Assembly: GCA_045837725.1 (NCBI GenBank)
Contig: JBEWZL010000289.1
Coordinates: 62,001-95,649 of the forward strand
Source of the DNA: Vermamoeba vermiformis
Taxonomy: Eukaryota
Direction: 5' to 3'
Length of the DNA stretch: 33,649 bases
In this document: positions 1,893 to 33,089 of the stretch, one piece after another
Layout: every line of letters starts with the position of its first letter
Numbering within the stretch: the first letter of the stretch is position 1
Notes under the pieces: generated by a model
Told to the model about the DNA's origin: nothing
What the model saw: the letters and a program-made list of their open reading frames with translations, nothing else
The model's database searches: none
Made by a program: the position numbers and the translations under genes

Positions 1893-2880
1893 TTGTAGCA
1901 AGCTGATCTAGAGTAATTTGGGTTAATTTTGAAGAAGCAGCTATGTTACCAACTAAAAATACTTTTAAAAACTAGTGGTACGTAAAACAGAAACTATGAG
2001 GAATCGCTAAATTAGGAAGCAATTTGCACAGAGATTTTGTACCTCGTGTTGCGTGGTACTTTGTTATTTAAAACATGACCTTCGACGTACACTTTAGCAG
2101 ATTAACAAGGACAAGCTGGCTCCAAGCCGATAACCAGGGCAAACACCAGTAACGTTCTCATCTGATTTGGTTGCAACGGCTAATTGATTTGAATCATTGT
2201 GGCTTACTAGGCAATCAGTATACTACGCATATAAGTGGTTAGTGTTCGTACAATTTTGCCGTCTAAACAAAAATAATGGAATCGTAGATGTCGCTACATG
2301 CATTCTAATCACTAATTTTAATCTTAAAATAATTTAAATATTATTATAATACGCAGTTCCATGAAATCTTTGAAAATGGGGTGAATCTGAACAAAATTAT
2401 ATGAAATAATTCTCTATCGAAAGCTAATATGAAAAGACTTAATAATTACTTTACCTGCTACTTCAATCACTGCTCGGAAATGCAGCATTTCACTAGATTT
2501 TGAGACGGAGTGGCCGGGATGTTTCGCAATCCGCTTTGACATTCAACGAAACATATCCGCTAATCCTTTTTCGAAGATGGTAGAAGCTTTCAGATTCTAT
2601 TGCTCTTCTATTGCATATTTAGCGGTTGATTCACAAATAAACGCGGAGCGCTCGGTGTTTTGAATATTTTTGGAAGCATCCTCCTCCAGAAAAAAACCAA
2701 AAAATAATAAAACGTTAACACTTGGAAGAAATAAGTAATTATTTGCTCGGACCATCTCCGACCACGTGCATATTAGCGTTAAAAATTAAATTTTTAATCT
2801 AGAAGATTTCCTTTTTTCATGAGCGCTAGGATTTGACACCACATCTCCCATCCGACAAATAATATTTGTTAATTGTCACT

Positions 2881-4600
2881 ATGAACAACGTAGGCTTGCG
2901 CGTAGATTTTTATAGTTATTCGTGCAACTCGTGCCAGACCAGAAAAGTAAAATGCGATCGAAAATTACCCAGCTGCTCCACTTGCCTTAAATCAAAGATC
3001 GATTGTCAGTATGGAGGAAACAAAAAACGAGGAAGAAAATCAAAACGAGAAAAGCTCGAGATGCAGCAAGAAGTTGCCGATCTTACCGCCGAATTAAAAT
3101 TTACGAAATCACTAGCGAACGCTTGGAGCCAAGTCTTTACGGAATATAAGAGTCCTATAGAGCCCACTAAATTTGACGAGGGTACGGAAATATTTCTCAA
3201 GTTGCCGAGTGCGGGGAAGACAGTCCTTCAAACATATGAAGAAAATTTCAAAATAGTATTGCCTGGCTACGATCACTTCGCGTCAAACAAAGAGATCGCG
3301 GAGTTAGTATGGAACACGTCTCTAAGCACTCCTTCAGAATTTCAACTTTTATGGCTAAATTTGGAACTCGAAGATCTGGCAATTTTTATCGAGTACCTTT
3401 CTTCGTACCTTATCGGTAATATTGTTTGAGGTGTTGAATAACAAAAGCATTTACAATCGATTGATATTTAGGAGCGATGATCTTGGGATTCGATGAATTA
3501 GCGTCACATCTCGTTCGTCAAGTCAACAACATTATCTTCACAGCCCTTGTATTGAAGACACCAACAGAAATTCCGACAATTCAACACTCTAATGAAAGGA
3601 ATTGCCTTATATGGTTGTTATTTTCGTGCGCCGAAACTTGCGCCGATGTTACGCATCCTTTCCCGCATGGCGTACGAACTCTACACCAAGATGAACACAC
3701 CCAATTACGACTTAGAAGCTGTGTATGTTTATACTATATAATTTGACACAGAACAGATCTTAATTACATAATGTAGGTTATGCAGCAAGCTTGCAATGAG
3801 TAGCGATCCCGTCGCCCACGAAAGGTGGTTGGACAGAATTAAAACATTAGAAGCACAGGTAAATATAATGACATGACGATAACAAATACGTTGTCTCTGA
3901 TAACGGTGCTAACACCCTGATGGCAGGGCCTAAACGTGTTCACAAAGCACATTGTGTACACAGCACTCGGCATGAATTTGTTGAAGCTACCTGCCGAAGC
4001 ATTAGCCTTATCGTAAGTCTTGTGCATAGCCTTATTCTCTTCTAACGGTAGCATAATTTAGGGATGCGCAACGCCTCTTTGACGCAGCGGAAAGTGCTCT
4101 CGTACAAGTGCCGCAACGCACAGTTTTCGGCAGTGTGTTAGTCAAGGCGATGAAAGCAGAGCTATATATGAGACTAGGCAATCGAGACTTCTGTCATCAA
4201 GTTCTAGCTTCGATTGCTGCCGATCTGAACATGGCGAGTTACAATCTTCGCGTCGTTATCTCTCAGACACTACAGGTGCGTCAGTCCCATTAAACTTACC
4301 AACATTATCTAATCTTTTCGATAGTACCATGCAGTAGTCTCGTTAGATAATCAGCTGGTGCTGGGCCCGTGGCTGTACGATTTTATTTTGTCGGGAGTGC
4401 AACAACCGAATGCGCTCAGGTACATAAATGATCATAATAATTCAGAGTATAATAGCAGCGAACAAAATGACAGTGATGAAATCGACGGGACTTTTTCGTG
4501 GTCTTCAAGCGACATGAAAGAAGCTGACAGCTTTGTGTGGTCCGATCCCCAAACGGACTACAGCGTAACCGAGAATACAGAAATGGCCAGTTTATGGTAA
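2881..4600 (+). CDS. Zn(II)2Cys6 binuclear-cluster (GAL4-type) transcription factor, multi-exon
   Basis: CNSCQTRKVKCDRKLPSCSTCLKSKIDC fits Cx2Cx6Cx5Cx2Cx6C, followed by basic KKRGRK and a coiled coil. In-frame introns at 3416-3471, 3723-3776, 3859-3926, 4013-4061 and 4276-4324. Acidic C-terminal tail. One frame discontinuity near 3513-3567. Confidence 0.88.
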
Positions 4601-4782: not shown

Positions 4783-6314
4783 TTAGAAGTTGATAACAAC
4801 CAAGCTGGCAACAACCAACAAGAAAGCAGGAACGACTGAACCAGCGCTGGATGAACCAGGGTTAGTCTCACCGTTGGCAGCGTTGTAAGCGGAGAAGGCA
4901 CGGTTCTCACGAGCAGCATCCTTGACGGAAGAGCTGGCATCCTTGCACTCGAAGACGTCGAGGTTGGGCTTGAGGATGTTTTGCTCGGCACTGCAGTAAG
5001 GGAAGTAGAACTTGCACAAGAAGGTCTTCAAGTCAGACTTGCAAGAGTCGGGGACGCTACCAACAGCGTTCATCATATCAACGGCGGAGTTGTAGGCGGT
5101 TTGAGTGAAAGAATCGACTTCCTCGAGGTGAAGGAGACCAGTGGTGGGGTAAGTAACGACGTCCGCGCAGAAAGTGATGTTGTACACGCATTGGCATTGG
5201 GAAGCAGCAGTGCAAGTAGCGGGGTAAGTAGTAGTGGTTTCGACGGCAGCGTTCTTGCAAACACCACTGCACTTGGCGTCGGGCAAGATTTGCTTGTTGG
5301 CGCTGACGGCAGCGATGTTCCAGAAGTCCAAAGTGGTCTTGACGGAGGATCCACCCAAGTTAACGTCGAAGACAGTGCGGCGCATTTGGTTGTTGGAGTC
5401 AACGTAGAAAGTGTAAGCGAAAGAGAAGTCTTGTTGAACGTTGCGCTCTATTAGTATGAAGATTAGCATCTCTTGTTTCGTATTTTCGCCGGAAAAATCT
5501 TACTCTTGGATCCGGAGTTGAAACCTGAGCTCCATGAGGCGGTGTATTCGCTGGTGGAAACAGAAGCACCGTTGACAGTGATGGAGACACCAGTGGACTT
5601 AAGGGTAGCAAAAGGAGGCAAAGAGATGATGGGCATCTGGATCGTTCGTTAGTGCCAAGTTTTTGGTATGCAAGTCATTATTATGATTACCTCAGTTGAA
5701 CCTTCGATGGCATTGCATTCGCAAGCGTTGGAGTCCCAAGTGTAGTTCTTGTTCTATTGAAACAGGAGATTAATTCAAGCGGTTCACAAAGCAGATCAAA
5801 CAAAGATTATAAACTAAAGCACGTAATGATTATGATGAATGTTGAATATTATTAATTCAATGATGATTACGATTTTAGGGCTCAAATAAACTAAATTCTT
5901 ACCAAGTCGTAGTAGACCAAGTTGGAGGCATCGAGAGGAGAATCGATTTCCATACCGCTAACAGAGAGAACAAATCGCTTGGCAGTTTGGAGCCAGATGT
6001 TGTTGGGGACATCAGCTTCGATGTTGCCGTAGACGGAGGTGGTCAGACTGCTAGATTGACGCTTGGCAAGCTCGTTTTGGACTTCCTTGGGGAGGAGAGA
6101 CTCTTGGCCAGAGAGTTCAATAGCACGCTTGGCGGAGAAGCCACCAAACTCGAAGGTGAAAGAGTAGTCGGAAGTGAATCGATCACTGCTATAATAAGTC
6201 GTTAGTAAGGGCAACAGGATGGTTCGGATCGGGTTTATCCACTTACAGAGTAGCAGGAGCTTGAGCAGCAATGTAAGCAGCGAAGCAAACGAGTACGATA
6301 ACAGCGATTTTCAT
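4783..6314 (-). CDS. Secreted, probably GPI-anchored protein: beta-rich (ependymin-like?) N-domain plus C-terminal Frizzled-CRD-like cysteine-rich domain
   Basis: Exons 6314-6247, 6188-5903, 5753-5691, 5636-5504 and 5447-4783 splice in frame. Signal peptide MKIAVIVLVCFAAYIAA. SCKSDLKTFLCKFYFPYC matches the Fz-CRD C...L..FLC..YFPxC pattern. Terminal SSSAGSVVPAFLLVVASLVVINF is a typical GPI signal. Strong C-ending codon bias. Confidence 0.8.
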
Positions 6315-7816
6315 TATGTTAGATGAGCTTTCTTTGTCTTGTTGCAATCTGTTCGACAACGAATGAATAGAATGGTGGATCAAGCGGCCTTTTATCTTTT
6401 TGCCTAAATCACACGAACATAAATATTAGTGCTAACTGTCTCCTAACCTGCAATACAAGAATTCACACCAACATGAAAAACGAGTGCAATGTCACAAGTT
6501 TCGATACTGGTGTGCAAAACAAATCACAAACGCACGAAAATTATGCGCAGTCCTTAACCGCCCCGTTCGATTGTAACTTACGTGATTGAGCTATGGTTCT
6601 TCGGGTGCATCCCTACATGCCAAGTGCTAAATATGTGCCTTTTGATCTATCAGCCAACGAGTGATCCCACCCGACAGGCCTAGCATCGTGATCAGAAAGA
6701 TCCATTTCTGAAATGTTTCGAGCTTCGGCTTGCGACATGAAATACTTCAATATTTAGTTGTTTAGCGTCGCGCTGATTTTCCTGCAACAGTTACAAGGTA
6801 CAAGGTAAGCGTCGTTAAAAGATTTTTAATGAAATAAATAAATCTATTGCCTGCGACAAATGGAGTATTATCAAATTATATTTAAGTTTGGTATGGGGAT
6901 TAAATTAACAATAATTGAATTTTAGACCAAAAGATTTGAAATCTGGTGTAATTGTTTTTTTGGCACGTAATTAGCATTTCGCAATTAAGAATATTCTAAA
7001 TTAAACGTATTATTACTCACGTTGAAAGTTTTAGTATGAAGATTTTTTGATCAAAAAATTACCCGTACTGATCTGAATAATCTGATGTCCAGGCAGGAAG
7101 CAAAAGCGCTTATAATGTTATCATCCAAATTGACCCATACGTAACTAAGTTGTATTACAAAAACAAACTGACTTCTACACGCGCTGAACATTTTTAAATT
7201 AATCGATCTTTTCCTCGTGCGCAACCACACCTAACCATTACTACTGAACAAGACTCAGCTGCCCTCAAACCAAGCTTGCGTTCAATATTGAACGCAAAAG
7301 GGTCCGAATATACAATGACGGACTGTTGTTGATCGAGCAGGCTTACTCAAAAATAATGTTATAACGTCTGATATTATTACAGTAATAATTATCCAAATAT
7401 TATTTCGATTTATGGTGAGCAACGAAAGGGAACAAATTTATTTCACCCAAATGAATAAGCAACGAATAGCCAAGAAATCTAATTGACTACGTAAGCTATT
7501 TAAGCAGCAAGATATTTCTGTGTTTAAATTATTAACGTAATAATTCAGGTCCTTTAATCAGCTGAATTACAAGTTGCAACAACGAGCAGCATCTGCACCG
7601 CCGCAAGTAACACGGCGGTGAGGCAACTGCGATTTCGTGTCATTACACGTGCATTAATATTATCTCGGCCATAATTCTCCGCTCGCTACATAGTCCATGA
7701 TTTCGCCATTATTGGTAACTAACTGGATTAAGCAATCCACCAACGGAAGAATTTTTGCCATTTCAAGTTCAACATTGTTCAAGTCGTTCGAAGTGGGAAT
7801 TTAATTAAATTTCAAA

Positions 7817-10800
7817 ATGAAAGCCAAGACATGGCTCCTAATATTAATATTGGCTGCCACCGCACTTCAGTTCGTTGCATCTCAGCTTGTAAACGGCGTT
7901 GACTGGTCCACTTGCCCCTATTCATGTAAGTCTTAACCAATACGGAATCAACATCGATAGTTGTTTGGCAAGTCGATCAATTATTGATCTATTTGACACC
8001 AGCGCGACCAACACCGCTCGCTCGAACTGCATCTGTAGCAATCCCACCGACTTTTGTTTCAGAGATTCGTAATATCTTTCCCGAGGGCAAGACACCAAAC
8101 TCACTCTTAGTTAACCCTGATAACGATGCATTCATTATTATTGAAAGTGTAAGTGACAAAATGTTCCGTGAATCTGATTAATTTGTCTTATTAACACGAG
8201 ATAATTTGATTAGGCAAGCAATGTTACATTCACATTCATACTTGAAGGTGCTGATTATAGAAATCAATTCGGATACTTCATTTTTGATCCCTCTACGAGG
8301 ACTGTAAATCCAAATCCTGGATACGTACCAATTTTTCCGGATGTCTCTACTAGTTCAAGAATGGGAGCCAACGGTAATATTTTTCGACTTATATTGTAGA
8401 GCGATAAGACTAAGACTCGAATTAGGTTGCCTGTTCTCTGGAGTTACTGTAACTGTTGGACCGTTCCCGGCCGCTACCATTATCGGATTCTGGGTTCGTG
8501 CTGATGGCTACAGCAATCCTAGCAACGCAGACACATGGTCCAGTTACACGACCGATGTTCTTACAAACGTAGATGGCTGCCGTCATATTGCGTGGACCAA
8601 AATCAATGGTCAAGTCGTCATCGGATTCGAAGATCTTCGTGGTCTCGGAGATATGGATTATAACGATGGTAAATATAATATCTTATTGCTAATTATAATT
8701 ATCGTGCTGACGCTTCTTAGTTATGTTCTACTTCACTACCGACGGCAATTTTACAGCCAGTCCTGGTCTCGTCGAAGTCGTCAATGGAACACTTCAAGGT
8801 TGCGTGCGCAGCGATTTGCGCATATCTACTTCGTACCAATGCACTCAATTCGCCATTTTGGATGCTTCTAGCTCCTTGGCGTGTCAAGGTTTCATCAAAG
8901 TGCCTGATACCTGGATCCTTGCTCCCAACGACGCCACTACCCGAAGCGCTGTATTGAACAATCCTTCGCTTTTCACAAACCCTGACGGCAGCAGTATTTG
9001 CATGGTACTAGCGGACGGCACATCTGTCAACAATCAATGGAGTCCCTGTGCTGCGAACACACCTCCGCAAGTCTTCTCCAAAGACGGCACTTGTTTTTAT
9101 GTTGGATGCGAGAGAAAACTGTTGATCAAGGGCACAACATCAACTTCCTCGTGCACTGGTCAACGTGATCTGTTGTGCAACCCTACAGTTGCCTCAAGCA
9201 TTCTTTCGAGCTTCCCCGACAGCTACACTTCCGGCATGTCGATCTTCCCTCAAAGCTGGACCGTTTACTTGAGCGATGTGCTCGCAGGCAGTGCGTCAGT
9301 TAACTTCAGCTTGGCTACCTTGCCACAACCCGCTCAACGATTTGACGTGATGGTCTTGTTGGATTCTAACAACATGCTCTCGAGCGACTTCGACACGGCG
9401 AAGAATCAAATCCCAAATTTATACACCTTGCTCAACAACAAATTTGCCCGCCCTCCAAATGTTGGTTTCGCGATCCACACGCAACTCTCTTCAAGCACAT
9501 ACAGATTGGACATTTTAAGCCGTCTGACCAACGACGTCAGTCAATTGACTACTGCTGTTCGCAATGTTCCTTCACTGAGCAGCACGACTCGTTTGGGCAA
9601 CAGTCAACTCATTCAAAGTGTCCAAGCCCTCGCTTCTGACAACACTATTGGCTGGCGTGGCGGCAACGTGTTTGGAGCTATCATTGTCGTTACTGTGTCT
9701 GCTCAACAGCGTAACTCAACCCTCAGTACAAGCTTGAAGAATGCCTTGTATGGAACTGGAATTACTCCGATTTATATTGTCCCGTCAATGGGCGATAATC
9801 CATTCAATGCCTACAATAGCTTCACGAACACCACGCTAAAAATGGGATGGAGTTACCAGTCCGCTACTTATCTGTGGTCTGCTACTGCGCTCCTTGGTCT
9901 TGACTCGTACAGCAACTCTATTCGATTCTATCCCGCGTCTGTAGCCTCCAATCCATTCTGGGACAACGTTCCATCACCGACAACTAGTAGTGAGGCGTGT
10001 GTCAACTCGTTGTGCCCCTTCACAGGTTTCACCGTCACCTACCCCGCCGACAGACCGGTTGGTTCTTTCTCGTTCCCTCTCGTGGCTTCGTTGAATATTC
10101 CTGGTGTTGGTGTGGCAAAGGTTAATATCCTGAGCGACGAAGCACCCATTGTCGTAGATCCGTTCTTTGTGTTAAATGAAGACGCAACGCGACAATTCAG
10201 TTTGAAGGATTTTGCCAGCGACAAGGATGGAAACTCAGTGCGCGTGATCTTCGTTGAACTTCCTCAGGGTCAGATCATTGCTGATGATGCTTACGCAACA
10301 TTGGTCAATAGCTACGACATTTCAACAGCGTTCAGTTACACCCCGCCTCCAAACTATTCTGGTCAAGAGACGGCTCTCTTTCGCGTGACTGACGGCTGCA
10401 AGAGCTCGACAATGGGTACGATCACCTTCGCGGTCAATCCCATCAATGACCCTCCCACCGCTGCAAGCGCAAGCTTCACCATCGATCAAGGCACTTCTGT
10501 AGACGTTGATCTGAGCACGCTAATCGCCGATGTCGAAGACCCCACCTCGTCTTTGGTTGTAATGCTAAAGACCTTGCCCAAGAACAGCACCTTGTTCCAA
10601 GCAGTCTCCAGTCAATTCGTTGCAGTCACTGCGAGTGAAGTGGCAATATCAACGATCGTTAGACTCATACCTCAGAGCAAGTGGTTTGGCAACACGTCCT
10701 TCACTTACTATGTGCGCGACTCAGCTGGTCAGCTCTCAACTGTTGGTACGATCAGCGTTCAAGTCAATCCTACCACCCCTGTCCTCCCTGTCAACCATCC

Positions 10801-13800
10801 GCCTGTTTGCTTCGACGTGCTTCTGACTGGCGAAGAGAACTCGACACTGACTTTAGACACCATTGGCGGACGAGATGTTGATGGCTCACCGATCTCAATC
10901 ACAATCCAAAATGTCACAACCATTGGTGGTGATCTGATGATGGGCGACCAGATCATCACATTGCCAATGACAGTCGAGGCAGGCTCTTTGGTAACATTCT
11001 CGCCTGTTGCGGATGTAAACGGCATGGTGGCAACAATCGCTTACGTGGTTAGTGATGGCACTCTGACATCGGATCCTTGCACTGCCATGATCTTCTTAAT
11101 CGCTGCAAACACTTCTTTGAGTGTGACGGCGGTTAATAATGGGGAGTTCACGCTCTCCGAGGGTTCAGAAATCTCCGTCAACTTTGATGAATACATCTTC
11201 TCCGACGGTCCTACTACGGTTGTTCTCGCGTCACTTCCCGCCAATGGCCAGTTGATCTCTGGTGATGGCGTAGTCGCTGTCGGAACGTCCTTTATGGCCA
11301 ACAAAACCTTCACTTACGTGCCCAATCAGTACTACAACGGCAACGACGCCTTTGATTGGTACGTTCTGGATAATGTCAATGCACGAGAAGACGCCTCGTT
11401 CAGCTTTATCATCACTCCTGTCAATACTCCTCCCTTATCCTCGAGTATCGTCATTTCGACTTACCGTGGCTCACCCGCTCGAATCTCCAACTTTGCAGTA
11501 GAGGATCCCGATACTCAATTGGCTAGCATGTCTTTGATCTTGTTGGCTAGCAATGGCATGGGCACACTTAGTGACGGATCCAAGTCACCCGTGTCATTTC
11601 CTCAAACATTCCCGTACGGTGATTGGAGCTTCTTATGGACTGCACCTGATGATATCCCTTACTACACTACCACAACAACTGTGGCCACTTATTCATTCCA
11701 GCTCAATGATGGTATCGACAACAGTCCTGTTTACACTATCACGGTCAACTTGCTCTACTCAAATTATCCTCCCACTGGAGCTGACTCCGTTACAATGACA
11801 CCTGAGGACACTCCTGCGCTGATCGTGTTGCAAGCTCGCGACTACGAGTCTGCACCGGAGAATTTGCGATTAGTAGTTGTATCGGCCTCTGGCAACGGCA
11901 ATTTTTATCTCGACGGCTCTTTCTCTCAGTTGGTTGTCGCCGGATCTCAATTGCCCGGCAAGCAAATGTGGTTCGTGCCCGCTCCTGGCACATACAGTAC
12001 GGACAGTCCTGCAGCCACATTCTCATACTTCATTGTGGACGAAGGAAGTCAACTCAGCCCCGTCTACGAAGGTTTCATCTACGTCAACCAAAGCGCCGAC
12101 CTCCCGCGTTACAGTGGTGCATTGAGCTTTGATGTGTTTGAAGACAGCGTGCTTACCATGCAGTTTGACGACCAGGTTGCCTACGCGAACGGAACTCAAG
12201 CCGCGACAACAATGACTGTGGTTGACGGAGTTTACAAAGGTCAGCTCTATGAATGCGCTGACAACGTCGATCCCTGCCAGAAGATAATTATCACAGCCGG
12301 TAGTGTGGTGCTCAATGCTGACAAGAAGTTGTTCTTCGTGCCCAACCCGAACGAGAACGGCATCGCCTACGCGGCGTTCGCTTTCACTTTGACTAATGGA
12401 GATGGAGTTACCAAGCCCTACGTCGTTATCATCAATGTCATTCCTATCAACGATGCTCCTGTGATCAGTGCCGACTATCCTACCATGCCTGATCGTGTGG
12501 TGTTCGACGAGGACACAGAGTACATCTTCTCATGGACAGCTACTGACGTTGATTCTCCCGGTGCCAATATTAGCGTTAAGATCACTTCTACACTCCCAGA
12601 AAATGCCCAAATCTTCGTTTGCACAAGCTACACTAATGGCAAGTGCGTGAAAGGAGACGAGCTCACGCCTCCTGTCTATGTTCCCTACATCGCAGCAGGC
12701 TTTTGGGCAGTGGCTTACGTACCTAATCCAAACGCATACGATGCTCACAACTTTGGTTGGTTCAATTTGGTTGCCGAAGACGACACTGGTCTGCGCTCTC
12801 CGCCAGTTCGAACATTGATTCAAGTGCTTCCAATCAACGACCCGCCAACTATCTTCGCTCAATACGTGACTCGCGCAGCTTACCTGGATGAATCTGGTAT
12901 CCCTACTGTTGCACTCTACGAAGTTGTGATCGACGATATCGATGCTGGCAGAAACAACTTGTTGGTGAACATTACCAGCACAGCCGGCAGCAATGTCACC
13001 ATCGATTACGATGGTGCTTTTGAAGACAAGGTCGTCAATGGTCGTGTCATTCCCGCTCGTTGCTCTAGAATCACTGACGACAATGGCTTTGATGGAGTTT
13101 CATGCCTCGACTCGAAAGAATACATTAACGAAATCCTCTTGAAATCCACGAGAATTCAGCTTGAATCCTCTACGCAATCGTACCAGATCTACATCTATGT
13201 GAACGACTTGGGTTCGACAGACAAAGAGGACAGACCAATGGAAAGTTCCTTAATTTTGATGGCCAGTCTCGAATCTAGCTTGATCCTTGCGGTGACAAAT
13301 TCTACCAACGACACTTCTTTGACGGTCACTTTGTCGGTGTCTGGTGGTGTTTCTGTGGTTGTGCTGATTTTAAGCGTTGTTCTATTCTCGTGCAAAGGCA
13401 ACGGGGATAAGATTGACACCTACTTTGAAGGAATTGCCCACAGCAATCCTAATGGCAACGGCGAACAACCGTCCACTGATCCTGTTGTCGAACCTACGAT
13501 TGAAGGAGCAGGCCACGGAAACCGTTCTCACTTCCCAGTCTTCGGTGTACTTGCCGCAGCGGCAGCCAAGAAGGAGAAGATTCTCTACGTGCCAGCAGTA
13601 CCCTCTGATACTACACAACCCGACTATTTGGCTACCATTGACGTGGATCCAATGTCACCTACTTACTGTCAAGTCATTCATCGCTTGCGCGCTCCGACTG
13701 CAGGTGATCAGCTGCGTCGCATCAACTGGAACGTCAACACGTTGAAGAATAGAAAGTACTTGATTGCTCCTGGAATGAAGTCAGGCAATATTCATGTAAT

Positions 13801-15040
13801 CGATACTACCAATCCACGCGCTCCCGCATTGCACAAGACTATCTTGGGCGAGGAAATTACCAAGAGTACTGGTCTTACTTGGCCTCACGCTACGTAAGTA
13901 ATATAGCTGATATCATTAGAAGTAATTGTTCTAACAAAAATTAGTCGCTGCTTACCGTCCGGTGAGATCCTCGTGTCTCACATGGCTGACAAACAAGGCA
14001 ATGCGTTCGGAGGTTATGTCTCGATGACTGCCGACTTTGAAGTGCAAGGCCACTGGGGCAAGAACAGTACTCAACTCGGCTACAGTTTCGCCTATCAAGC
14101 TGGCACCAACACAATGGTCAGCACTGGTTGGGGTGAGCCAAACGCTCCAAAACAATCAGAAGGCGATGCTGCTCCTGATCGATACGGCCGATCCATTTGG
14201 CTCTGGGACTTGGAAAAGAAGGAAGTGTTGAAGGCAGTGGTAAGTTGGCTTGTTTCTCGCAGTGCAGCGACAATGTTACTGATCACGTGTTGTATTAGGA
14301 CCTCGGTGACGATGGAATGATGCCGTTAGAAGTTCGCTTCATGCATCACCCCGAGAGTGCACACGGCTTTGTTTGCGCTGCTCTGAATGGCTGTGTATGG
14401 CACGTGTACTTGGACGACAACGACGAATGGCAGTTCGAGAGAGTAATCAAGATCGAGTCTATTCCAGTCGATGATTGGATATTGCCTATTATGCCAGCAT
14501 TGACTACTGATTTGGTTATCTCTCCTGACGACAAGTTCCTGTACATTTCGAACTGGTTGCACGGAGATATCCGACAATACGACATCACCGACCCTGCCAA
14601 CCCGAAGCTCGTTGGTCAATTGTACTTGGGTGGTTCATTGCGCCAAGATGGAGGTGTCAAGTAAGTCCCATTCGTGATCAAGGGTAAAAGACAGCCGCTA
14701 ACTAATCTTTCGTAGAATGACTTCGGGTAACGAAGGTATCGTAGTGCCTGAAGTCAAGGGACGTACGCTGCAAGGAGCTCCTCAGTCAATGCAGTTGAGT
14801 CTTGACGGCAAGCGTTTGTACGTTACCAATTCGTTCGTTTCCTCGTGGGATCTACAGTTCTATCCCGACCTTGAAAGCAAGGGAACGCAACTGCTCCAAG
14901 TGGATGTCGATGTTAAAGAAGGCGGACTGACGCTGAACAAAGAGTTCTTAGTCGACTTTGCTGATGAACCTGACGGTCCAGCTGTCGCTCGTGAAATGCG
15001 CTTGTACGAAGGCGACTGTACCATGGACGTTTGTAAATAA
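7817..15040 (+). CDS. Giant type-I membrane protein: signal peptide, DUF4114-like domain, integrin-beta/Sib-like vWA, tandem cadherin-like/Ig repeats, TM helix, cytoplasmic SBP56 (SELENBP1/methanethiol oxidase)-like domain
   Basis: ATG 7817 ([22 protein letters not shown]). [15 protein letters not shown] and [16 protein letters not shown] motifs. DVMVLLDS...IGWR..GAIIVVT (vWA). Repeated NPINDPP/IPINDAP/LPINDPP linkers. [24 protein letters not shown] single 1724-codon ORF runs from the ectodomain into SBP56. Introns 13894-13944, 14240-14298 and 14661-14715 complete it to TAA at 15040. Confidence 0.88.
13568..15040 (+). other. SBP56/SELENBP1-like beta-propeller domain with degenerate metal-binding motifs (part of the gene above)
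   Basis: [79 protein letters not shown] and GDCTMDV closely match SELENBP1 motifs. Confidence 0.93.
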
Positions 15041-15252
15041 TAATGATGTAAAATAGAAGCGTAAGCTAAAAATAAAATTGTAATTTCTAAAAAGAGCTTA
15101 TTTGTTATTGTCTTCTTTGGCAAAGCAATCAACCAGAGTTTGGATTAAATGATCACAAATACGAAAATTCAGGCAAATTTCATACGGGTCCCTTTCTTTG
15201 CGTTGAAAATTTTTATTGAGTAAAATCTTTACTACCTACGCGTAATACCACA

Positions 15253-17466
15253 ATGAAGTTTAAAATATTTATTCTATCGCTCCTCTGCTGCTTGTACCTC
15301 GCGTCCGCTTTGAAGAACGGATTGGGCCTTACTCCACAAATGGGTTGGAACAGGTAATTTAATATTGCAAGTAAATAATTTAGCTTTTACTGGGATTTAC
15401 TAATTCCACCCGCCAAACTTGACAACTAAACTTCAATTTCGCTTCAAGATTCAATCTGAAAATTTTTTGTTTTCGCAACGATAATAACGCTATTGAATTA
15501 CCCTTATTTTCAAAGTACGAAATTACTAAAGGACAATTTTAATGCTGCGGAAATAATTTACTGGCTCTGCAACGTGACATCTGTACCTTTTCAAAAAACT
15601 AACTATCAAATTTAATTAACAGCTGGAATGCATATTTCTGCGACGTCAATGAAGACAAAATTAAACAGGCCATTGATGCTATGGTTGTGTTTGGTCTTCG
15701 CGAGTATGGCTATGAATATGTCAACAGTAAGCCAAAAATTTATCCTTTAAATATTATTCTGTCATGATTAATTATTTACGCGCTCCAACATTTGATTTAA
15801 AACGTTTTTGGGCACCGGAGATTTTTTAGATTTCAAATCTGACCTTAACTTGGTTAACAATCGTAATAATAAGTTTAGCGTCAATTTATCGAATACTCTA
15901 AATAGTTAATTAATTGAAATCGCTAGTTGACGATTGCTGGTCAAAGGGACGTGACGAGAATGGTGCTTTGATTCCCGATCCTGTGACATTCCCTTCTGGT
16001 ATCGCGGCTCTTGCTGACTACGGTAAGTTTTTATAATGCTAATGTCACCTCGTTTTATTTTAATTGTTAGTAGCCCTTAAGGGCCTTTCATAGCCGTTTC
16101 AACTTTTATAGTGAATTTTCCGCATGTTCAATAAACCGCATTTCTGACTAATTAATTTCTTTTAGCTCACGCTCGTGGTTTCAAGTTGGGTATCTACTCC
16201 GACAGCGGCTCAAAGACTTGCGCTGGTCGCGCTGGTTCTTACGGCTTCGAGGAAATTGACGCCAAGACTTGGGCTAGCTGGGGCGTTGACTACTTGAAGT
16301 ACGACAACTGCTTTGTGAACGACACTATGGTTCCTACCAAGCCTAGGTATGGTTAATACGTTGAATGCGTGCTATCGCGATATTAACCTTATTATCAGGT
16401 ACGAAAGAATGCGCGACGCTCTCGCTCAGGTCGATCGTCCTATCTTCTTCTCCATGTGCGAGTGGGGTGTTGATGCGCCTTGGTTCTGGGCTTCGGTGAG
16501 TTGATGTCACGCGACTTCAATTTCCTTATCCGGCTCTGACGCTTTTTTGTTTTAAATAGGAAGTCGGCAACAGCTGGCGTACAACTGGCGATATCAACGA
16601 CAACCCCTACTCGTTGACTCAAATTATCGACAGCTCTGTCGGTGTTTCTCGCGTAAGTACAGGATTTGTGTCAGGTTTGTGAATAAGCAGCTGACGATTG
16701 TTGTCTCGCAGTTCTCTGGTCCTGGAGGCTGGAACGACATTGATATGCTCGAAGTTGGCAACGGCGGCATGTCCTACGAGTGGTACCAATTCCACTTCTC
16801 ATTCTGGTGCTTGTTGAAGGCCCCCTTAATCTTGGGCTTTGACATGTACAACAAAATGACCCCCGAGATCTTGGACTTGATCACCAACACTGAGTTGATT
16901 GCTATTAACCAAGACAAGCTCGGCGTTCAAGTGAGTTTAATAGTGGCTGTATTTTTACCGTTCCGTTGCTAACAATTGCGATCAAGGGTGACTTGGTTTG
17001 GCAACTTGGTCCCGAGCAAGTCTGGGCTGCTCCTTTGGCTGACGGCGGTCGTGCTTTCATTATCTGGGAGAGGTACGTATTGACGGATTTTCGTGGCAAA
17101 TGTTTCCCGCTCACATTCTCTCTTCAGAATGTATGAGAAGGACGTCACTGTTCACTTCCCAATGCTCGGTTATGATAACACTACTGTTGTTACTGTTCGT
17201 GACATTTTGAACGGCAAGGATGTTGGTACTTGGACCGGAAAGTAAGTGTTCTAACCACCTTCGGAAGCAGTGGTGTAACTTGTTTTTGTCAGGTTTGTTA
17301 CAAACGTCCAAGGAGATGACGTGACTTTCTTCGTCGGTCGCATGACTCCCGTTAAGTCCGAGTAAGTACACTTGTGTGTGTGAATATCGTGTAGTTGAAT
17401 TAATCGTGTTTTCTCAGCCCCAAGTACACCACCTGGAGACCTTGGAAGAACAACCCTTGGAACTAA
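15253..17466 (+). CDS. Glycoside hydrolase family 27 alpha-galactosidase/alpha-N-acetylgalactosaminidase, secreted, many introns
   Basis: Signal peptide, then [45 protein letters not shown] (nucleophile Asp), SWRTTGDI (acid/base Asp) and [18 protein letters not shown]. Last exon ends PWN-TAA at 17466. Confidence 0.95.
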
Positions 17467-22558: not shown

Positions 22559-24272
22559 CACTGCTAGGGCCACAAGCCTAAATCAAAACAAGGAGGTGTC
22601 CTACAAAAATGCAAATCTTTGTTGATTACATCAAGAGCATAGATGTAAAGTTGCATTGATACATAAACTGTGGATTTGCAAAAACACTCTCTTTGATTAC
22701 ACTTTGTTTTTGCTACAAACCTGTAGGTGCTGGCGTCTTTGCTAATAAATGATCATCTTTGCTAAGATAGATTGAAAAATCAAAGAGAAATAAAAGAATG
22801 TACATAAATAGCTTGTTTACTTTTTGCAGTGTCAAGACAATTTTGCAAATTTTGGTTGACATAACAAGAGCATCAATGCAGAGACAGCAAAGATGGGATA
22901 TTTTTGATTCTCTTTGTCAAAATCTGAACTTACAGAATGAATGGCGAGTCCCTGCCAGAGGTGGATGCAACATAGACAAAGGCCTAATTGAATTGAGTTG
23001 ATAACAAGTTTGAGTCAATTAATTAACACTTACCTAAAGATTGCATACAACTTGTTGATGCTTTATCTTCAGACAAGTTTGGATGCACCATCCAAAAATA
23101 TTTGTTTTATGGCCCTAAAAATCAAATAACTATGTTAAAAAATTGTTTAAATATTCTGCTAACTAACCTTGAAAGCTTGGGCTTATCTGAAATGTTGGTC
23201 ATACCACTGGATTGGATATCCTAAGTATGGTTGTATTAGTACGACAATATGCTTATAAAACTATCTGGAACAGAGGGTAAAGTTTTGAGCATCAGCAGTG
23301 TTGTTTTCTGAGGAAAAATGAAAAGGGAATAAAAAAATGTAGGTGGCGTCCAATCAGGAAAATGGAATTGATTCCATTTTCAATAATGTTGATAAATAAG
23401 CTTATTTTTGTTTATTATACTGAGATTATGCATATGTATGAGTTTGAAAGCAAATTCGTATCAATGAAGACATTATCTAAGCAGATCCAAAAAATGGAAC
23501 TGATTCCATTTTAAAAAGTATTGCTGAATTGGGTTATTTTACTTCATAACAATTATATTATGAATATAGATGAATGTGAAGTTAGTATTTTGTTAATGAA
23601 GTCATTATCTAAGCAGATCTGAAAAATGGAATTGATTCCATTTTCAAAAATACAACAAAATAGGGTTATTTTGCTTTGTAACAATTATTTTATTAGTGTA
23701 GATGAGTACGAAGTTAGTATTTTGTTGATGAAGTCATTATCTAAGCAGATCTGAAAAATGGAATTGATTCCATTTTCAATAATGTTGACAAATAAGCTTA
23801 TTTTTGTTTATTATACTGAGATTATGCATATATATGAGTATGAAAGCAAATTCGTATCAATGAAGACATTATCTAAGCAGATCCAAAAAATGGAACTGAT
23901 TCCATTTTAGAAAATATTCCCGAATAGAGTTATTTTGCATTATTTTACCATTACTAAGCCAATATAGGGGTATGAATGCTGTTTTTTGTCAATGAAGACA
24001 TGTATAGAGCAGATCCAGAAAATGGAATCAATTCCATTTTAACGATCTGGCATTTTTTGGCTTTTTAGGCAATAATTGACCTATATACAGCATTGCAACA
24101 TATATTCAGTAATAAATATCAATGAATATACCTGCTTAGCTCAGTACAGTGCGTCTGATTAGTAAGGAAAGATGATGTCTTTGCAAAACATTTATTTTTG
24201 CAAAGATACAATGCTCATCAATTATAAAACAGATAATCAAAGCAAGGAGAAATTGTTGTGGCCCTAGCAGTG
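22559..24272. mobile_element. 1714-bp non-autonomous TIR DNA transposon with CACTG termini (CMC/CACTA-like)
   Basis: Perfect 17-bp TIRs CACTGCTAGGGCCACAA (22559-22575) and TTGTGGCCCTAGCAGTG (24256-24272). Flanked by AA on both sides (possible 2-bp TSD). Removing it restores a normal unit of the 50-bp array. No transposase ORF inside. Confidence 0.88.
23359..24040. repeat. 132-bp-period tandem repeat anchored on the palindrome AAAATGGAAT-TG-ATTCCATTTT
   Basis: Palindrome copies start at 23359, 23491, 23623, 23755, 23887 and 24019 (exact 132-bp period). Units 1 and 4 are nearly identical, and units 2 and 3 are similar. Confidence 0.95.
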
Positions 24273-24976
24273 AACCCAAGTCTGTAAAGGTCATCTCCAG
24301 CGTGGAGACGATCTCCTAAAAAAACCAAGTCCGTAAAGGTCGTCTCCAGCGCGGAGACGATCTCCTAAAAAATACTGTGCAAGTTACTAAAATTTATTTA
24401 TTTATTACCGAATTACAGAATTGTGCGCGCGAACAGTCGGGATCGTGATCTATTTCCATGCAAAACCTAATAAAATCGTTAGTCATTGTCTGTATTAATG
24501 TTTAATTTATTTAAATTAATTTATTCGTTCAAATCCAAATCCTGGATCAAACAATTATCTAGTGCACTTACCAAAATTCACGGTTGATCCATTATGCTGG
24601 TATATAAATTGACCCTTTGAGTAGAACTGATGCGTCATCTAAAGTCGCATCAGCTTCAATCCAAATAACTCGCGCTGAACGGCGCTGGTGACCGTGGCGC
24701 GTTACTGTCGGCTGTATAATCAATGCAAATAAGACCCTTGTGGTCGCGCTGTTGAGCTTAAATTTAATATGACCTAAATGACTGATGTTAGGCATTAGGG
24801 ATACAATCCCTATCACTAATAAACATTGATACTATATTAAATACGGGAGGGTCCATTACTGATCCCGAGCGAGACTCGTTAAGGATGATATTCAAATAAT
24901 CATTCATCCTAAAGTGAATAAACTTAACTTTCAGTTAGTCATCCCAGGCGAGACTCGCTCGGGATGAAAGTAAATC

Positions 24977-27900
24977 ATGAATGGTAATCTAACGCGCAAT
25001 AGCAGAGGTAGATCAAATCCTGTTGCCGATCTGTCCGAGGAAGCAAGTAGAAGATCCACGAACGTTAATACGGAGAAGCCAACGGAAGAAAAGGAGCCTG
25101 TATCCGAAGACGCTGGTTTGTTCAGCCCTCGGAATCCTCTGGTTCAAAACATACGAATCGCCGTGGAGCGGAAACTGTTTCAGAAAAAGGACAGCTGGGC
25201 GACTGCTCAATACAAGCCCAACTACCACACTTCTGGTCCTTGGTATATTGAGCCAAACGCTGCAGCCGATCGACTGGTGTTTCACGGGAAGCTTTTGCGT
25301 AACGTTGGTTCTGGCGTTAGTGGTGAAAAAGTGGAGAGCGACATTATGGAAAAGCACGAACTGGTCATCTGTCGCCCGGCGAAGTTCAGCAACATGTGCT
25401 ATCTGTTTGCTTGCATAGATGGCAGCTTTAAAGAGAAGGACCAGATTTTCATCAACGTCAACTCTTTTTGGGATTTGGAAAAAATCAACCCCATCATTGC
25501 TGAATGGAAGCTTGTCGAGAAAGCAGCTGATGTTTTTGAATGGGCCGGAAGCTTTCCATTACCCGAATGGGTTAACCTGTACATTCAAGCAGTTGAAGCC
25601 GGAAAGGTCACTGATTTTGGGCGAGTGGACACAGAATCACAACAACAGGCGATTAACGAGCTGCAGGAATGTATTGAGATGACGGATATGGTCGTCGACG
25701 AACAACCTGAGCCGAATCCGGTTGTTGAAAGCCAGGAGAACCAAGGAGCGGTGCAGCAACCCACAGTCGTCATTGACGACGATGAGCCCTTTGGTAATCC
25801 TAAAGAATTTCCAGTGGTTGGGGCTAAAAAGAAGCCAACAATTGTAGAAATTAAGGTAAATTTAATTGAAACTGTCCCAAGCGAGACTCGCCTGGGATGC
25901 AACAAATAATTTACAAATTTAATATTACATAAACCAAAACAATAATGAATTCATCCCGAGCGAGACTCGCCTGGGATGAGATACTCATTTCTTTTCAAAG
26001 AAAACAAAGATATAATGTAAAGTCACAATGTTGGAAAGTAATCCCGAGCGAGTCTCGTCAGGGATGAAACAATGCATACCAGGTACTGACGTTAACTTTG
26101 TAGGTTGCTGAACCAACAGCTAAGGACGAAAAGTTCGTCCGATCTTTGTTGCGGTTGGAGGACGAAGAGGCTTTGTTAGCTGTGGCCAAGACGGAAAAAG
26201 GGGCAAAGGCTCAGGAAGACTTCGAAGCGAATCTGTTGCAGAAGCAATCAAAGAAGCTGATGGATAAACAAATCAGCGATGCAGAGGCCGAAGCAAGAGC
26301 GGCTGCAGGGCTGACGAAGGAGGTCGTCGATGAACTTGCCAAGAACATCAAAGACAAATCCTACTTGCAGAAAGTCCAAGCCCACGGAGTCCAATTGTTC
26401 AACTCCGATAAGAGAGCCGGAAACTTTGACAACATACCCATCACTGTCATGAAGAAGGCCTCAAAAAATATAATGCGCGACCTTAAGCAGAATGTCGTGC
26501 AAGAGAAAGTGAAGAGCATTGGTTCGGAATGGTGGAACCAAACACCAATGGTTGGCTGCATCACGCAAACTCAATGGGACAACACAAAAGATTACTTTCT
26601 GTCTCATCTCTCAGGCAAGCCAATGGCTCACAAGCCAGCCTTCAATGATTTGGTCGAGACTTTGGATGGCCAGCACAGACTACATGCTGCTGCGATCTTG
26701 GTTCAGCAGAAGAAGATTAAGAATCCAACAATGAGCTTGATCTTGTTTGTTGGATTGACTGAAGAAGAGAAGAGGGTCATTGCTCTATGGTATAACGAAG
26801 TCCAAAAGAGCATGGCCCAAATCACGCTTGTAGATCTCTTAAAACAAATGAGAGAGGCCTGGTTGGATCTTCTGTTTGGCGAAAAGAAGCTGAGCCCTGT
26901 TGATGCAGAAGTTCAGATCATTGCCAAGTACCATCCGCAAATAATGGAGATGACGCGAGGAACGACTGCCAAGAAGTTGAAGGAGGTTATTGACACTGTA
27001 GATGTTAGCCTGAAGCCAAAAACAAAAGGCAAGAAGAAAGATGCACAAGAAGAGGAAAAAGAAACAGAAGATGAAAAACGGACTACCCGAAACACTGTTT
27101 TTGCAACAGCCTTGGTTGGTAACCACAACAAACTTCGAGGTGCTTACCAAGTTGTTCCCGGTTGGCCTACTTTTGTTTGGGTTCTTTGGTACACTTACTT
27201 GAAGGATCAAGAAACTCGATCACCCCTTTCTGTGCATCACTATTCTGAACTGAGTGGTATGTCCATGAGAAGACGTCACATTGCCATGGCATACGCTGCA
27301 GTAAACAAACTCAGCCCCAGCAGTTTCCGTGCTTTGTGTCGCTACCTCAAAGGCCGAGAGTTTGTCATTAAATTCTTGAAGGAGACGGTTGTCCCTACCA
27401 TTGCCGAAATAAGGAAGGATAATGCGCAATACAACACCCCTCTTGTGCTTAAAGCTCAAGATTACTGGCTTAACCAGGCTCAAGTTGGCAACTTGCTTCC
27501 TATTCTCAGCATCACCGGTGGCAACCTCCGACAGCCTAAGCTTCGCTCCCCCGATCAGTAAGTGGAGGTCCCAAAGACTTGCAACAAATGTCCTCCGTTA
27601 CGCGCGTCATGCAGACCACAAGAGGACAAACGGTTGCAAACAAAGCCCTTGAAGTTTTAAAAGAAAAAGGAGTTTCGACTTTGGGTGACTTTGAAACGGT
27701 AAGTATTATATTCAAAATTCATCCCGAGCGAGACTCGCCAGGGATAACACTTCACTTCTTTTGTACTCAAAATATTACAACTTCAAGCAAATATTAATCA
27801 AATTCATCCCGAGCGAGACTCGCCAGGGATAAACATTTACTTAGTTGTGATTATAATTGTATCAAATTGCAACATTTTGAAAGAAAATCATCCCGAGCGA

Positions 27901-29466
27901 GACTCGCCAGGGATGAGAAATATTTTATAATAATTTGGAATAGTTGTCATTCGTATTAGCTTTTACCTTTATGAAATCATCCCGAGCGAGACTCGCACGG
28001 GACAGCGAACAATACATTCTAACAGTTTTGTTTATAAAGATGCACTTATTTATTGCCGACTGTCGAAAAGCTTTTGCGAACGAAGTGGAAGTCCAACGAT
28101 GTGTTGATATGAACGAAACTTTAATCAACTCTGGATTGGTTGCCGTTACACTGTGCTGCACGGAAACACTTTCAGACATCATTGAAACTATGGGTATTGC
28201 AAAGAAGATGTTCATCTTCCCCGTAATGCTTTACAAAGGCTATCACATGACGTCAGATAAGCCTACTGGTGGAACTGGTTTATTTGTCGTTCTGCAGTGG
28301 CATACCATGCACACCAAGCTGATCAAACTTCGGAATATTGGTTACGAGACCCTACTTCCCAATGTCGGTTTCTCGTATGAACATCAATGCTTCTTTGCCA
28401 ACAAGAATCCCTTGATCCAGAGAACAGTCAAGTCTGAGAGCATTCCTGACGAAGACAATTTGTTGACCGAGTTTATGGCATCTTTGGGGCAGTTCGTCGA
28501 ATTATCTGGTAAAAGCTGTGCCATCATCATGGGAACCATGCGCAACAATGCCATTGCTTTTGCCGGACAGGCCTTCTTGCAAAACAAAAGAAGGTGCCTG
28601 TTCCTTGATACGACTACTGACGTGGATAAAATCTTGCCAACGTCAATGGGTAGAGTTGTGCCTTTGGTTTCCTTGTTTTCGGCAAACTATTTGAAAGAAA
28701 GCGTGCTTCGTCTGGTTGAACATGACTACAAGAGCAGTTTCAAACTTCTCCCGCCAACTTCTCCCACCAGAGGCAAGCTTGCCAATTTTACCTGGTTGCA
28801 AAACTACGTCACAGCTGCAATCACTGAATCGACGATCAATTCTTGGGTTGATGAGCAAATAGAGAAAATCAGATCCAACGAATTGTACACATTGTTGTTT
28901 GAATGGGAACATGAACTTGTTCGTAAATACAACATCGACAAGCTTGCAGATGCCAAAGAGCCCAAGAGTCCTGTAAGTCATCCCAGGCGAGACTCGCTCG
29001 GGATGGAATTGTATGAAATTACCCTTTTCACTTACAATTATTACAGGAAATGCTTGAATGGTACAAAGAGATGAAGAAGAATGATATCTTTTACCAAGAC
29101 ACTCATGAATTCGACTTGGTTCACAAAACTTGGGCGGAGCTTGAAGCTGACTTTTACAAGGAGAAGGAAGCCAAAACTCCAAAGAAGGGTCAAAAAAGAA
29201 AAAGAGAAGAGGAAGAAGAAGAAGATGAAGAAGAAGAAGAAGAAGAGCAAGAGGAAGAGGAGATTGAAGAAGAGGAAGAAAACGAAGGTGATGGCGAAAA
29301 GACTAAAAAGACCAAGTCGAAGAAGACAAAGAAGAGAACGCAACCCAAAAGAAAGAAGAGAAAAGTTGCAGGAATTGTTGAAGAGGAGGTTGAGCCTGAG
29401 AACAACAATAATAACAACAACAACAACAATGATGACGATGACTTTCAAACTCCAAAAAAAAAGTAA
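24977..29466 (+). CDS. Spliced ParB/Srx-fold (DGQHR-motif) protein with possible degenerate amino-methyltransferase-like domain and acidic/basic tail; one frameshift; possible extra exon to 29785
   Basis: Exons ~24977-25856, 26104-27698, 28040-28972 and 29047-29462/6 join via GT-AG introns in phase 0. TPMVG...ETLDGQHRLHAA...LILFVGLTEEEKRVIALWYNEVQ...ITLVD matches the ParB N-terminal domain. Frameshift at the C5 run 27548-27552. True start uncertain. Confidence 0.8.
29195..29441 (+). repeat. Coding low-complexity GAA/GAG and AAC/AAT tracts (poly-E, K-rich NLS-like segment, poly-N)
   Basis: EEEEEEDEEEEEEEQEEEEIEEEEE, KKRTQPKRKKRK and NNNNNNNNNNDDDD in ORF 29050-29466. Confidence 0.85.
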
Positions 29467-32247: not shown

Positions 32248-33089
32248 TTATTTGGCGGGTTTAAAGGAGTTCCAATCAGTACAAAATACAATCGATTGCC
32301 TATCTCCCTCAACGACAGGAAGGTTCTCGTGCAGCATCTTCTGAGATTGGAAGAAAATGATGTCGCCCTTTTCGAAGTGGATGCGGATCTTCTCGTCACG
32401 GAAGACCAAATCTCCTCCTGTGAAGTTGCCAAACGGCAGAACGCAACACAAGCCATCAGGACGGTCCATGTGGTCGTAATGAGGGCCTGTTGTTCCCCAG
32501 TTGACGACGCACATTGAAAACGACTTGCCAACCAGTCGCGGGCCCGGGGTCTCCACGTCGCAGTATTCCTGGTACAGCTTCTTGCTGGTCTGCTTGAACA
32601 ACTTGTCCACTATTCTGAACAGCTCCATGTTCAGCACGTTGTAAAAGAATCTGCCACCTTGCTTGATGCAGCAGGCCATTCCGTCGCGCGAAAGGAACTG
32701 GCGTTTACGGTAACGCCGCCAATAACCGAGATGGTAGCTTCTGGTGTTGCGGCAAGCAGGACGACCGACAGCCAGTTTGAGGGCACGAGAAGATTTCACT
32801 AAGTTGTTACAATACTTGAGAGGAATTTTCTTTTTGAAAAAACGGATGGCCACGTTGCCTTCGGCATCCCAAAAAATAAAGCTAATATTATTAAATTAAA
32901 ATAAGTATGTGAGAAATCATACTATAAAAATGCTACTTACTCGTCGTTAACTACCTGAAATTCTTTGAGGATAGGGTCATCAGCCGAGAGAGGTTGCACG
33001 TTCGGATCGAGTTTTCGCCTTGATTTTAAAATTATCTTACGCCTGAATACCTGACGGATGCGCCCGCGACGTAAGTTCTTTAGACCCAT
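32248..33089 (-). CDS. TET/JBP-like 2-oxoglutarate/Fe(II) dioxygenase, two exons, ~260 aa
   Basis: Exon 1 33089-32941 (MGLKNLRRGRIRQVFRRK...) and exon 2 32881-32248 are joined in frame by a GTAAGT..TAG intron. Motifs YHLGYW, FSMCVVNWGTTGPHYDHMD (HxD), CCVLPFGNFTGGDLVF, GDIIFFQSQKMLHENLPV (distal His, HxN) and DRQSIVF (RxS) are all intact. Confidence 0.85.

Follow-up and report, generated by a model that had tools for sequence, protein, structure and literature searches.

Can the cytoplasmic tail of an adhesion receptor be a complete SBP56 propeller, and if so, is that propeller still an enzyme? The question is raised by one gene in a 33,649-nucleotide stretch of the Vermamoeba vermiformis genome (GenBank assembly GCA_045837725.1, contig JBEWZL010000289.1, positions 62,001 to 95,649 of the forward strand), here called the window, whose own numbering is used throughout. 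A preliminary description, made from the letters alone, had read in it an ectodomain of cadherin-like repeats joined in frame, through a transmembrane (TM) helix, to the domain known from SELENBP1 and methanethiol oxidase, and had guessed at a signalling or scaffold module. We find that the fusion of a Sib-type receptor to SBP56 is real, transcribed and conserved. With moderate confidence we further propose that its product is a type I receptor of the Sib family, of ~2270 amino acids, in which the NPxY talin-binding tail has been replaced by a catalytically disabled SBP56 propeller acting as a docking or scaffold module.

Gene structure, transcripts and relatives of the fusion

In our model the fusion gene occupies 7817-15040 on the + strand in 8 exons and encodes 2270 amino acids, which run from N to C terminus as signal peptide, DUF4114, Sib-type vWA-like domain, Big_9/cadherin-like repeats, Ig_SibA, TM helix, linker and SBP56. 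A typical signal peptide follows from the ATG at 7817. Most of the listed receptor features fall in a stop-to-stop open reading frame (ORF) at 8711..13897 (+), 1728 amino acids long under the standard code and named P0001, whose Pfam matches to Big_9 (PF17963, 2e-25), Cadherin_4 (PF17803, 2e-21) and Cadherin_5 (PF17892, 8.3e-14) are all above their cut-offs. The single uninterrupted ORF of the earlier reading held through the TM helix, the linker and the first 113 amino acids of SBP56; beyond that it failed, ending at 13893, directly after which the open frame closes at a GTAAGT donor, with three GT..AG introns to follow. The features are:

7817..7925 (+): exon 1, start codon and signal peptide (hydrophobic amino acids 3-26, hydropathy peak 2.19 in windows at amino acids 3-8); GT..AG joint 7925>8003 in an X1 contig
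8003..8148 (+): exon 2; joints 7925>8003 (X1) and 8148>8214 (X2)
8214..8373 (+): exon 3; 3' boundary and following intron (8374-8425) predicted only
8426..8667 (+): exon 4, DUF4114 domain (PF13448, E 7.4e-08, 33.7 bits against a cut-off of 27); joint 8667>8720 in X1 and X2
8720..13893 (+): exon 5 (5174 nucleotides), remaining ectodomain, TM helix, linker and first 113 amino acids of SBP56; from ORF 8711..13897 and Pfam
9314..9904 (+): Sib-type vWA-like domain (PF24909 vWA_SIBA-E, E 2.1e-11, 44.3 bits against a cut-off of 27)
10139..12496 (+): Big_9/Cadherin_4/Cadherin_5 repeat region, limits approximate; Pfam
12497..12826 (+): Ig_SibA domain (PF24619, P0001 residues 1263-1372, E 2.5e-08, 34.4 bits against a cut-off of 27)
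13319..13393 (+): TM helix, the sole internal cluster of 19-residue windows with Kyte-Doolittle hydropathy above 2 (2.52); aligns with the TM helix of relative P0005
13394..13552 (+): linker of 53 amino acids, no Met and no stop in translation; D-x-Y-F-x-x-I in common with P0005
13553..13893 (+): SBP56 part 1 (PF05694 profile positions 12-133, P0001 residues 1615-1727, E 2.9e-28)
13894..13944 (+): intron of 51 nucleotides, GT..AG, spliced out in X1 record 5 and X2 record 10
13945..14239 (+): SBP56 part 2 (profile 136-236, E 6.2e-20)
14240..14298 (+): intron of 59 nucleotides, GT..AG; joint 14238>14298 (cut +1) in X1 and X2
14299..14660 (+): SBP56 part 3 (profile 238-353, E 1.9e-46)
14661..14715 (+): intron of 55 nucleotides, GT..AG; joint 14660>14716 in X1 and X2
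14716..15040 (+): SBP56 part 4 (profile 356-451, E 2.5e-37), with TAA stop at 15038-15040

The four SBP56 exons together cover profile positions 12-451 of 453, and the domain is therefore complete. Introns of the gene measure 51-77 nucleotides, mostly with GTAAGT donors; the one at 8374-8425, for which no cDNA joint is listed, was picked from nine distinct frame-preserving GT..AG combinations by intron length and acceptor. The vWA_SIBA-E match came from a separate Pfam scan of P0001 residues ~190-420. A search of 7000-16000 for tandem or dispersed repeats found none.

The RNA evidence consists of assembled contigs from two public runs (X1 and X2). They come from a strain close to that of the window, and the contigs are 95-99% alike to the window sequence; a further two RNA runs, X21 and X22, consisting of raw reads, yielded 0 reads and carry no weight here. 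X1 record 5 (1799 nucleotides) maps to 13076-13893, 13945-14238, 14298-14660 and 14716-15015, and X2 record 10 (1014 nucleotides) to 13295-13893, 13945-14238 and 14298-14415. Both are unbroken across the ectodomain end, TM helix, linker and SBP56 (two of the two runs that yielded reads), with neither termination nor splice within 13300-13700, the interval that the preliminary description had singled out for a transcript check. Because the three GT..AG introns of the SBP56 part are precisely removed, the contigs derive from spliced RNA. Further contigs carry the 5' joints 7925>8003, 8148>8214 and 8667>8720. Among the listed differences from the related strain, 28 of 40 are synonymous (a further 61 differences lie outside this count).

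The predicted topology is type I, with signal peptide and single TM helix. It would place the ectodomain outside the cell and leave the SBP56 propeller in the cytoplasm, where eukaryotic SBP56 is usually found. Strong hydrophobic segments are the signal peptide at amino acids 3-26 and amino acids 1751-1781 (window peak at 1751-1763, Kyte-Doolittle 2.52), with a borderline third 19-residue window at amino acid 1006. Sequons of the form N-x-S/T number 20 in the 1752 ectodomain residues and 2 downstream of the TM helix, a distribution that fits this topology weakly.

Searching a TM-linker-SBP56 query against a collection of 5.8 billion proteins, restricted to those of 950-3024 amino acids, gave 3 matches among 1293 candidates: P0002 (99% identity, on a 7.6-kb contig), P0003 (80% over the searched region and 76% overall in the alignment, 386-kb contig) and P0004 (74% and 72%, 15.6-kb contig). 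Each has a Big_9/Cadherin/Ig_SibA ectodomain, TM helix, linker and SBP56 within one ORF, so that the fused architecture read earlier is borne out both by Pfam and by the junction in all three. Identity to P0003/P0004 is 74%/72% in the ectodomain, 81%/81% in the TM helix, 69%/53% in the linker (where the relatives differ by substitutions and in-frame indels only) and 87%/83% in the N-terminal part of SBP56. No other segment of the fusion protein, the ectodomain included, is conserved as strongly.

The breadth of this architecture was gauged with HMMER, by scanning 1.84 billion cluster representatives exhaustively with the same 198-residue query; 750 matched at E <=0.001, and the best 150 of the 750 were listed. 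Among those 150, P0003, which represents the fused family, alone covers query positions 1-197, while the other 149 start at position 60 or later and thus do not reach the TM helix (positions 7-32). The best non-fused match listed has 46% identity, and none of the listed non-fused ones exceeds 58%, in the N-terminal part of SBP56. As judged from these best 150 of 750 matches, fusion of this kind appears limited to a narrow clade, with one 50%-identity cluster in the 1.84 billion representatives; it appears to be a lineage-specific invention, not a widespread architecture. A search with the vWA-like region returned 5 matches among 7981 candidates, namely the three fused proteins together with P0005 (3016 amino acids, 54%) and P0006 (1437 amino acids, 49%), both lacking SBP56. 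Metagenome contigs from JGI/ENA gave no relative of the fusion in a first scan (297 pattern matches), and an alignment-based second scan of them gave just L001 and L002, distant cadherin-like loci of 28-29% identity that have no bearing on it. Three listed candidates for further fusions were set aside: P0088 and P0145 are LVIVD/Ig-repeat proteins and not true SBP56, and P0049 does not share the architecture, being an SBP56 with a C-terminal extension that has no Pfam match. P0049 (1159 amino acids, complete SBP56 at residues 64-518, then ~640 residues without Pfam match) may in its own right be another multidomain SBP56 or a gene-call artefact.

Active-site residues and the fate of catalysis

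The tail resembles SELENBP1 and bacterial MtoX in matching the PF05694 profile over 12-451 of 453, and all four of its exons match the solved structure 2ECE. Those proteins are stand-alone, soluble or periplasmic (PMC5739008), the family's usual form being a soluble protein of ~45-56 kDa; here SBP56 is instead fused in frame behind a TM helix. A second difference lies in the active site of these copper-dependent methanethiol oxidases (MTO). Six residues of SELENBP1 (H73, H74, H137, H140, D189 and E252) are each needed for ~90% or more of its methanethiol oxidase activity, according to Table 1 and section 3.3 of Philipp et al. (PMC10362175), which gives the same requirement for the equivalent residues of Caenorhabditis elegans SEMO-1. 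The six coordinate copper, and in the published SELENBP1 model (PMC10362175) they line the central cavity. A 2026 follow-up (PMC13603461) describes them as conserved between a bacterial MTO and the orthologues of plants, fish and mammals.

We mapped the six by aligning the spliced tail with 12 full-length representatives, by aligning single exons with 2ECE, and by motif spacing. The equivalents of D189 and E252 were assigned by alignment and spacing within a set that held no human sequence, and for their human numbering we in part assume the motif contexts. The series H73/H74/H137/H140/D189/E252 reads R/R/H/R/S/E here, with four of the six substituted and two retained:

13715-13720 (+): Arg-Arg replacing His-His (alignment)
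13886-13888 (+): retained His, the first of HxxH (alignment)
13946-13948 (+): Arg replacing the second His of HxxH, HxxH-C becoming H-x-x-R-C (alignment)
14084-14086 (+): Ser replacing the Asp189 equivalent, the Asp of Y-D-F-W (alignment)
14329-14331 (+): retained equivalent of Glu252, in P-L-E-x-R (alignment)

The mapping is supported by motif spacing that matches canonical sequences: from the second His to the Asp there are 46 residues here (46-51 in four canonical sequences), and from the Asp to the Glu 62 (61-64). The Arg-Arg pair is invariant in 4 of 4 fused sequences, and the Ser recurs in P0007, an exon-2 fragment from the P0004 contig. By comparison, the other 149 listed SBP56 matches (best 150 of 750) gave 148 aligned stretches, of which 141 have HH at the His-His column. 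The aligned tail has neither the CSSC loop, which is deleted, nor the N-terminal Cys pair (both motifs as in PMC11394908, Table 1).

With four of six copper-coordinating residues and the CSSC loop lost, the tail is most likely not a methanethiol oxidase. That these essential residues are gone from what is nevertheless the most constrained segment argues for a pseudoenzyme with a new function over a decaying domain. To the guess of the preliminary description, read here as scaffold in place of enzyme, the four substitutions add support that it did not have before; the signalling or scaffold role itself is something we infer. Partial loss of the motifs is also seen elsewhere among the SBP56 representatives, in that P0059, P0115 and P0030 lack parts of His-His or HxxH (one example being a bacterial protein with a Tat-like leader); on alignment, the copper site may have been lost more than once in the family.

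How such a receptor would work can be sketched. The Sib-type ectodomain would bind substrate or particles, while the seven-bladed SBP56 propeller, tethered as a pseudoenzyme at the inner face of the plasma membrane, would offer a site for docking or ligand binding and so connect adhesion with partners in the cytoplasm, in place of NPxY-talin coupling. Three Arg and one Ser would rebuild the copper site as a basic pocket, and it is speculation that this pocket binds an anionic ligand. We put forward tentatively, as less than likely, an extension in which the fusion is a natural 'Rosetta stone': SBP56/SELENBP1 propellers would have a non-catalytic role at a membrane-cytoskeleton or membrane-trafficking interface, hard-wired here to a Sib receptor independently of talin and NPxY, and the pocket could bind a phospholipid head group or a phosphorylated partner.

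Several points weigh against a disabled scaffold. The tail keeps the residues that correspond to H137, E252, G225, H329 and the C-terminal Cys, and given this and the strong constraint its site may be altered yet still catalytic or metal-binding. That the substituted residues would line a central cavity is taken solely from the published SELENBP1 model. Arg at the H140 equivalent is seen in this lineage only, the ORFs of the relatives ending at the intron. The RNA contigs, moreover, are assemblies, with which an extra internal start or alternative isoforms are compatible, and the single molecule from exon 1 to exon 8 with its 2270-amino acid product is our reconstruction.

The kept residues also speak for a tail that has stayed enzymatic. 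Tethered to the membrane beneath the receptor, it would oxidise thiols or other substrates at a remodelled metal site and so produce or remove H2S or H2O2 locally; that the SBP56 part is the most conserved (83-87%) and is matched by the profile from end to end fits this view too. We think it improbable nonetheless. Arginine is a poor copper ligand, and the CSSC loop and N-terminal Cys pair are missing. Of the four replaced residues, moreover, the loss of any single one lowers the activity of the human and C. elegans enzymes by ~90% or more (PMC10362175).

Origin of the receptor part and competing accounts of the tail

Two Sib-specific Pfam models, vWA_SIBA-E and Ig_SibA, match the ectodomain, which on these profiles is a member of the Sib (integrin-beta-like) family. 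In the translation of P0001, D-x-S-x-S, the motif of the metal ion-dependent adhesion site, was not seen at the expected place in the vWA-like domain. With SibA-E of Dictyostelium the fusion protein shares the signal peptide and the Sib-type vWA-like domain, the Ig/cadherin-like repeats of bacterial type, Ig_SibA and a single TM helix; unlike them it adds an N-terminal DUF4114. The tails differ. SibA spans the membrane, with its vWA domain outside the cell and a short tail whose two NPXY motifs engage talin (PMC12686525), whereas the 493 residues that follow the TM helix here, ending in SBP56, contain 0 matches to NP.[YF], that is, neither NPxY nor NPxF, in agreement with the absence noted earlier. 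An N-P-N-G in the linker was considered as an NPxY remnant and dropped, as it is not conserved in P0003 or P0004.

P0005 shares the start of the N-terminal exon with the window protein, is 54% identical to it in the vWA-like region, and over the last 283 amino acids is 44% identical, an alignment that passes through the last Ig-like region, the TM helix and D-x-Y-F-x-x-I and then stops. Unlike the fusion protein, P0005 has many more repeats and no SBP56, and its short tail ends ~50 amino acids past the TM helix and carries NPFY. Since P0005 keeps both D-x-Y-F-x-x-I and NPFY, the fused protein resembles a Sib paralogue in which the juxtamembrane piece was retained and the NPxY part swapped for SBP56. 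The simplest origin would be that a Sib gene and a neighbouring SBP56 gene became one through loss of a stop and a start.

The fusion protein could also be a precursor: cleavage of the linker or inside the membrane, either following synthesis or when the cell adheres, would release a soluble SBP56-like protein. The linker is the least conserved segment (53-69% identity) and probably unstructured, and the other listed SBP56 representatives are soluble proteins of ~400-520 amino acids, all of which would suit a released product. But we identified no conserved cleavage motif, nothing in the sequence requires cleavage, and an intact tail explains the conserved membrane-proximal motif and reading frame equally well; we regard release as no less improbable than a surviving oxidase.

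It is very unlikely, in our judgement, that the locus makes two products, a Sib receptor and a separate SBP56 arising from an internal promoter or alternative processing, with read-through a minor form. Word depth over 13254-15052 (~5-8) is somewhat above that of many upstream bins (0-6) in both runs, and the two junction contigs start just 25-245 nucleotides upstream of the TM helix. Against this, depth is low overall (0-8), and in X1 it is ~5.4-6.9 over 13254-15052 and again 5.7-6.6 at 11712-12482, with no clean step at the linker. A start for a separate SBP56 is also hard to find. As the preliminary description had observed, there is neither a Met nor a stop between the TM helix and SBP56 (53 residues in our model). 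P0004 has Asn in place of the first Met of the domain, so no internal start is conserved; its view that independent AUG initiation is unlikely stands. The frame through the linker, finally, is kept in three lineages.

An assembly or annotation artefact joining two unrelated genes can hardly be right, as no point in its favour was found and it is contradicted by a junction that appears both in two cDNA contigs of another strain and, in frame, in three independently assembled relatives (on the 7.6-kb, 386-kb and 15.6-kb contigs), which together make misassembly or two separate genes unlikely.

Neighbouring loci and significance

The genome is very compact around the fusion gene. A secreted alpha-galactosidase gene (15254-~17000, +) begins ~215 nucleotides past its stop; it encodes a signal peptide, is interrupted by one or more short introns and matches Melibiase_2 at 2.9e-14 over 16556-16969. 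Upstream of the fusion gene, the ORF at 2863-3426 (+) encodes a Zn(2)-Cys(6) binuclear cluster domain of fungal type (PF00172, 4.7e-09), and the ORF at 4786-5499 (-) gives a sub-threshold match to Fz, the Frizzled cysteine-rich domain (27.6 bits against a cut-off of 32.1). Taken by themselves, the Zn(2)-Cys(6) domain, the tight gene spacing and the short introns hint at a fungal or fungus-like genome more than at that of an amoeboid protist. Farther downstream, past an AT-rich trough at 23001-24000 (GC 0.288), the region 24974-29466 (+) holds long ORFs of 311, 485 and 376 amino acids without Pfam match, followed by a highly acidic poly-E/poly-N/poly-D stretch at 29017-29466, and may be a lineage-specific or mobile gene cluster. 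The ORF at 32251-32895 (-) may encode a Tet/JBP-like dioxygenase, to judge by weak similarity to Tet_JBP, whose 30.1 bits fall short of the 34.9 cut-off, and similarity to 2OG-FeII_Oxy_3, whose 27.4 bits lie right at the threshold. Tet/JBP-like dioxygenases are often linked to mobile elements in fungi.

What is new in the fusion gene is a pseudo-SBP56 cytoplasmic module on a Sib-family receptor, which we consider unprecedented. A full-text literature search found no paper pairing SBP56 with SibA, or selenium-binding protein with integrin beta-like, and a word search of a paper on SBP evolution returned none of the words fusion, fused and transmembrane. A parallel exists in concept: on integrin tails the pseudokinase ILK puts a dead enzyme fold to use as a scaffold under an adhesion receptor. 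ILK has an unrelated fold, however, and is a separate protein and not covalently fused.

SELENBP1 has long been studied; its oxidase activity was found recently, and other roles reported for it are unexplained. The reported roles include intra-Golgi transport and redox regulation (cited in PMC5739008). For this family, a conserved and expressed fusion of a catalytically stripped SBP56 to a receptor provides a concrete, testable case of non-enzymatic use of the fold. For the Sib-type receptors, which are integrin-like proteins of non-animal eukaryotes, it indicates that the talin-binding tail can be swapped for another module, and this exchange of tails bears on how adhesion signalling evolved outside animals.

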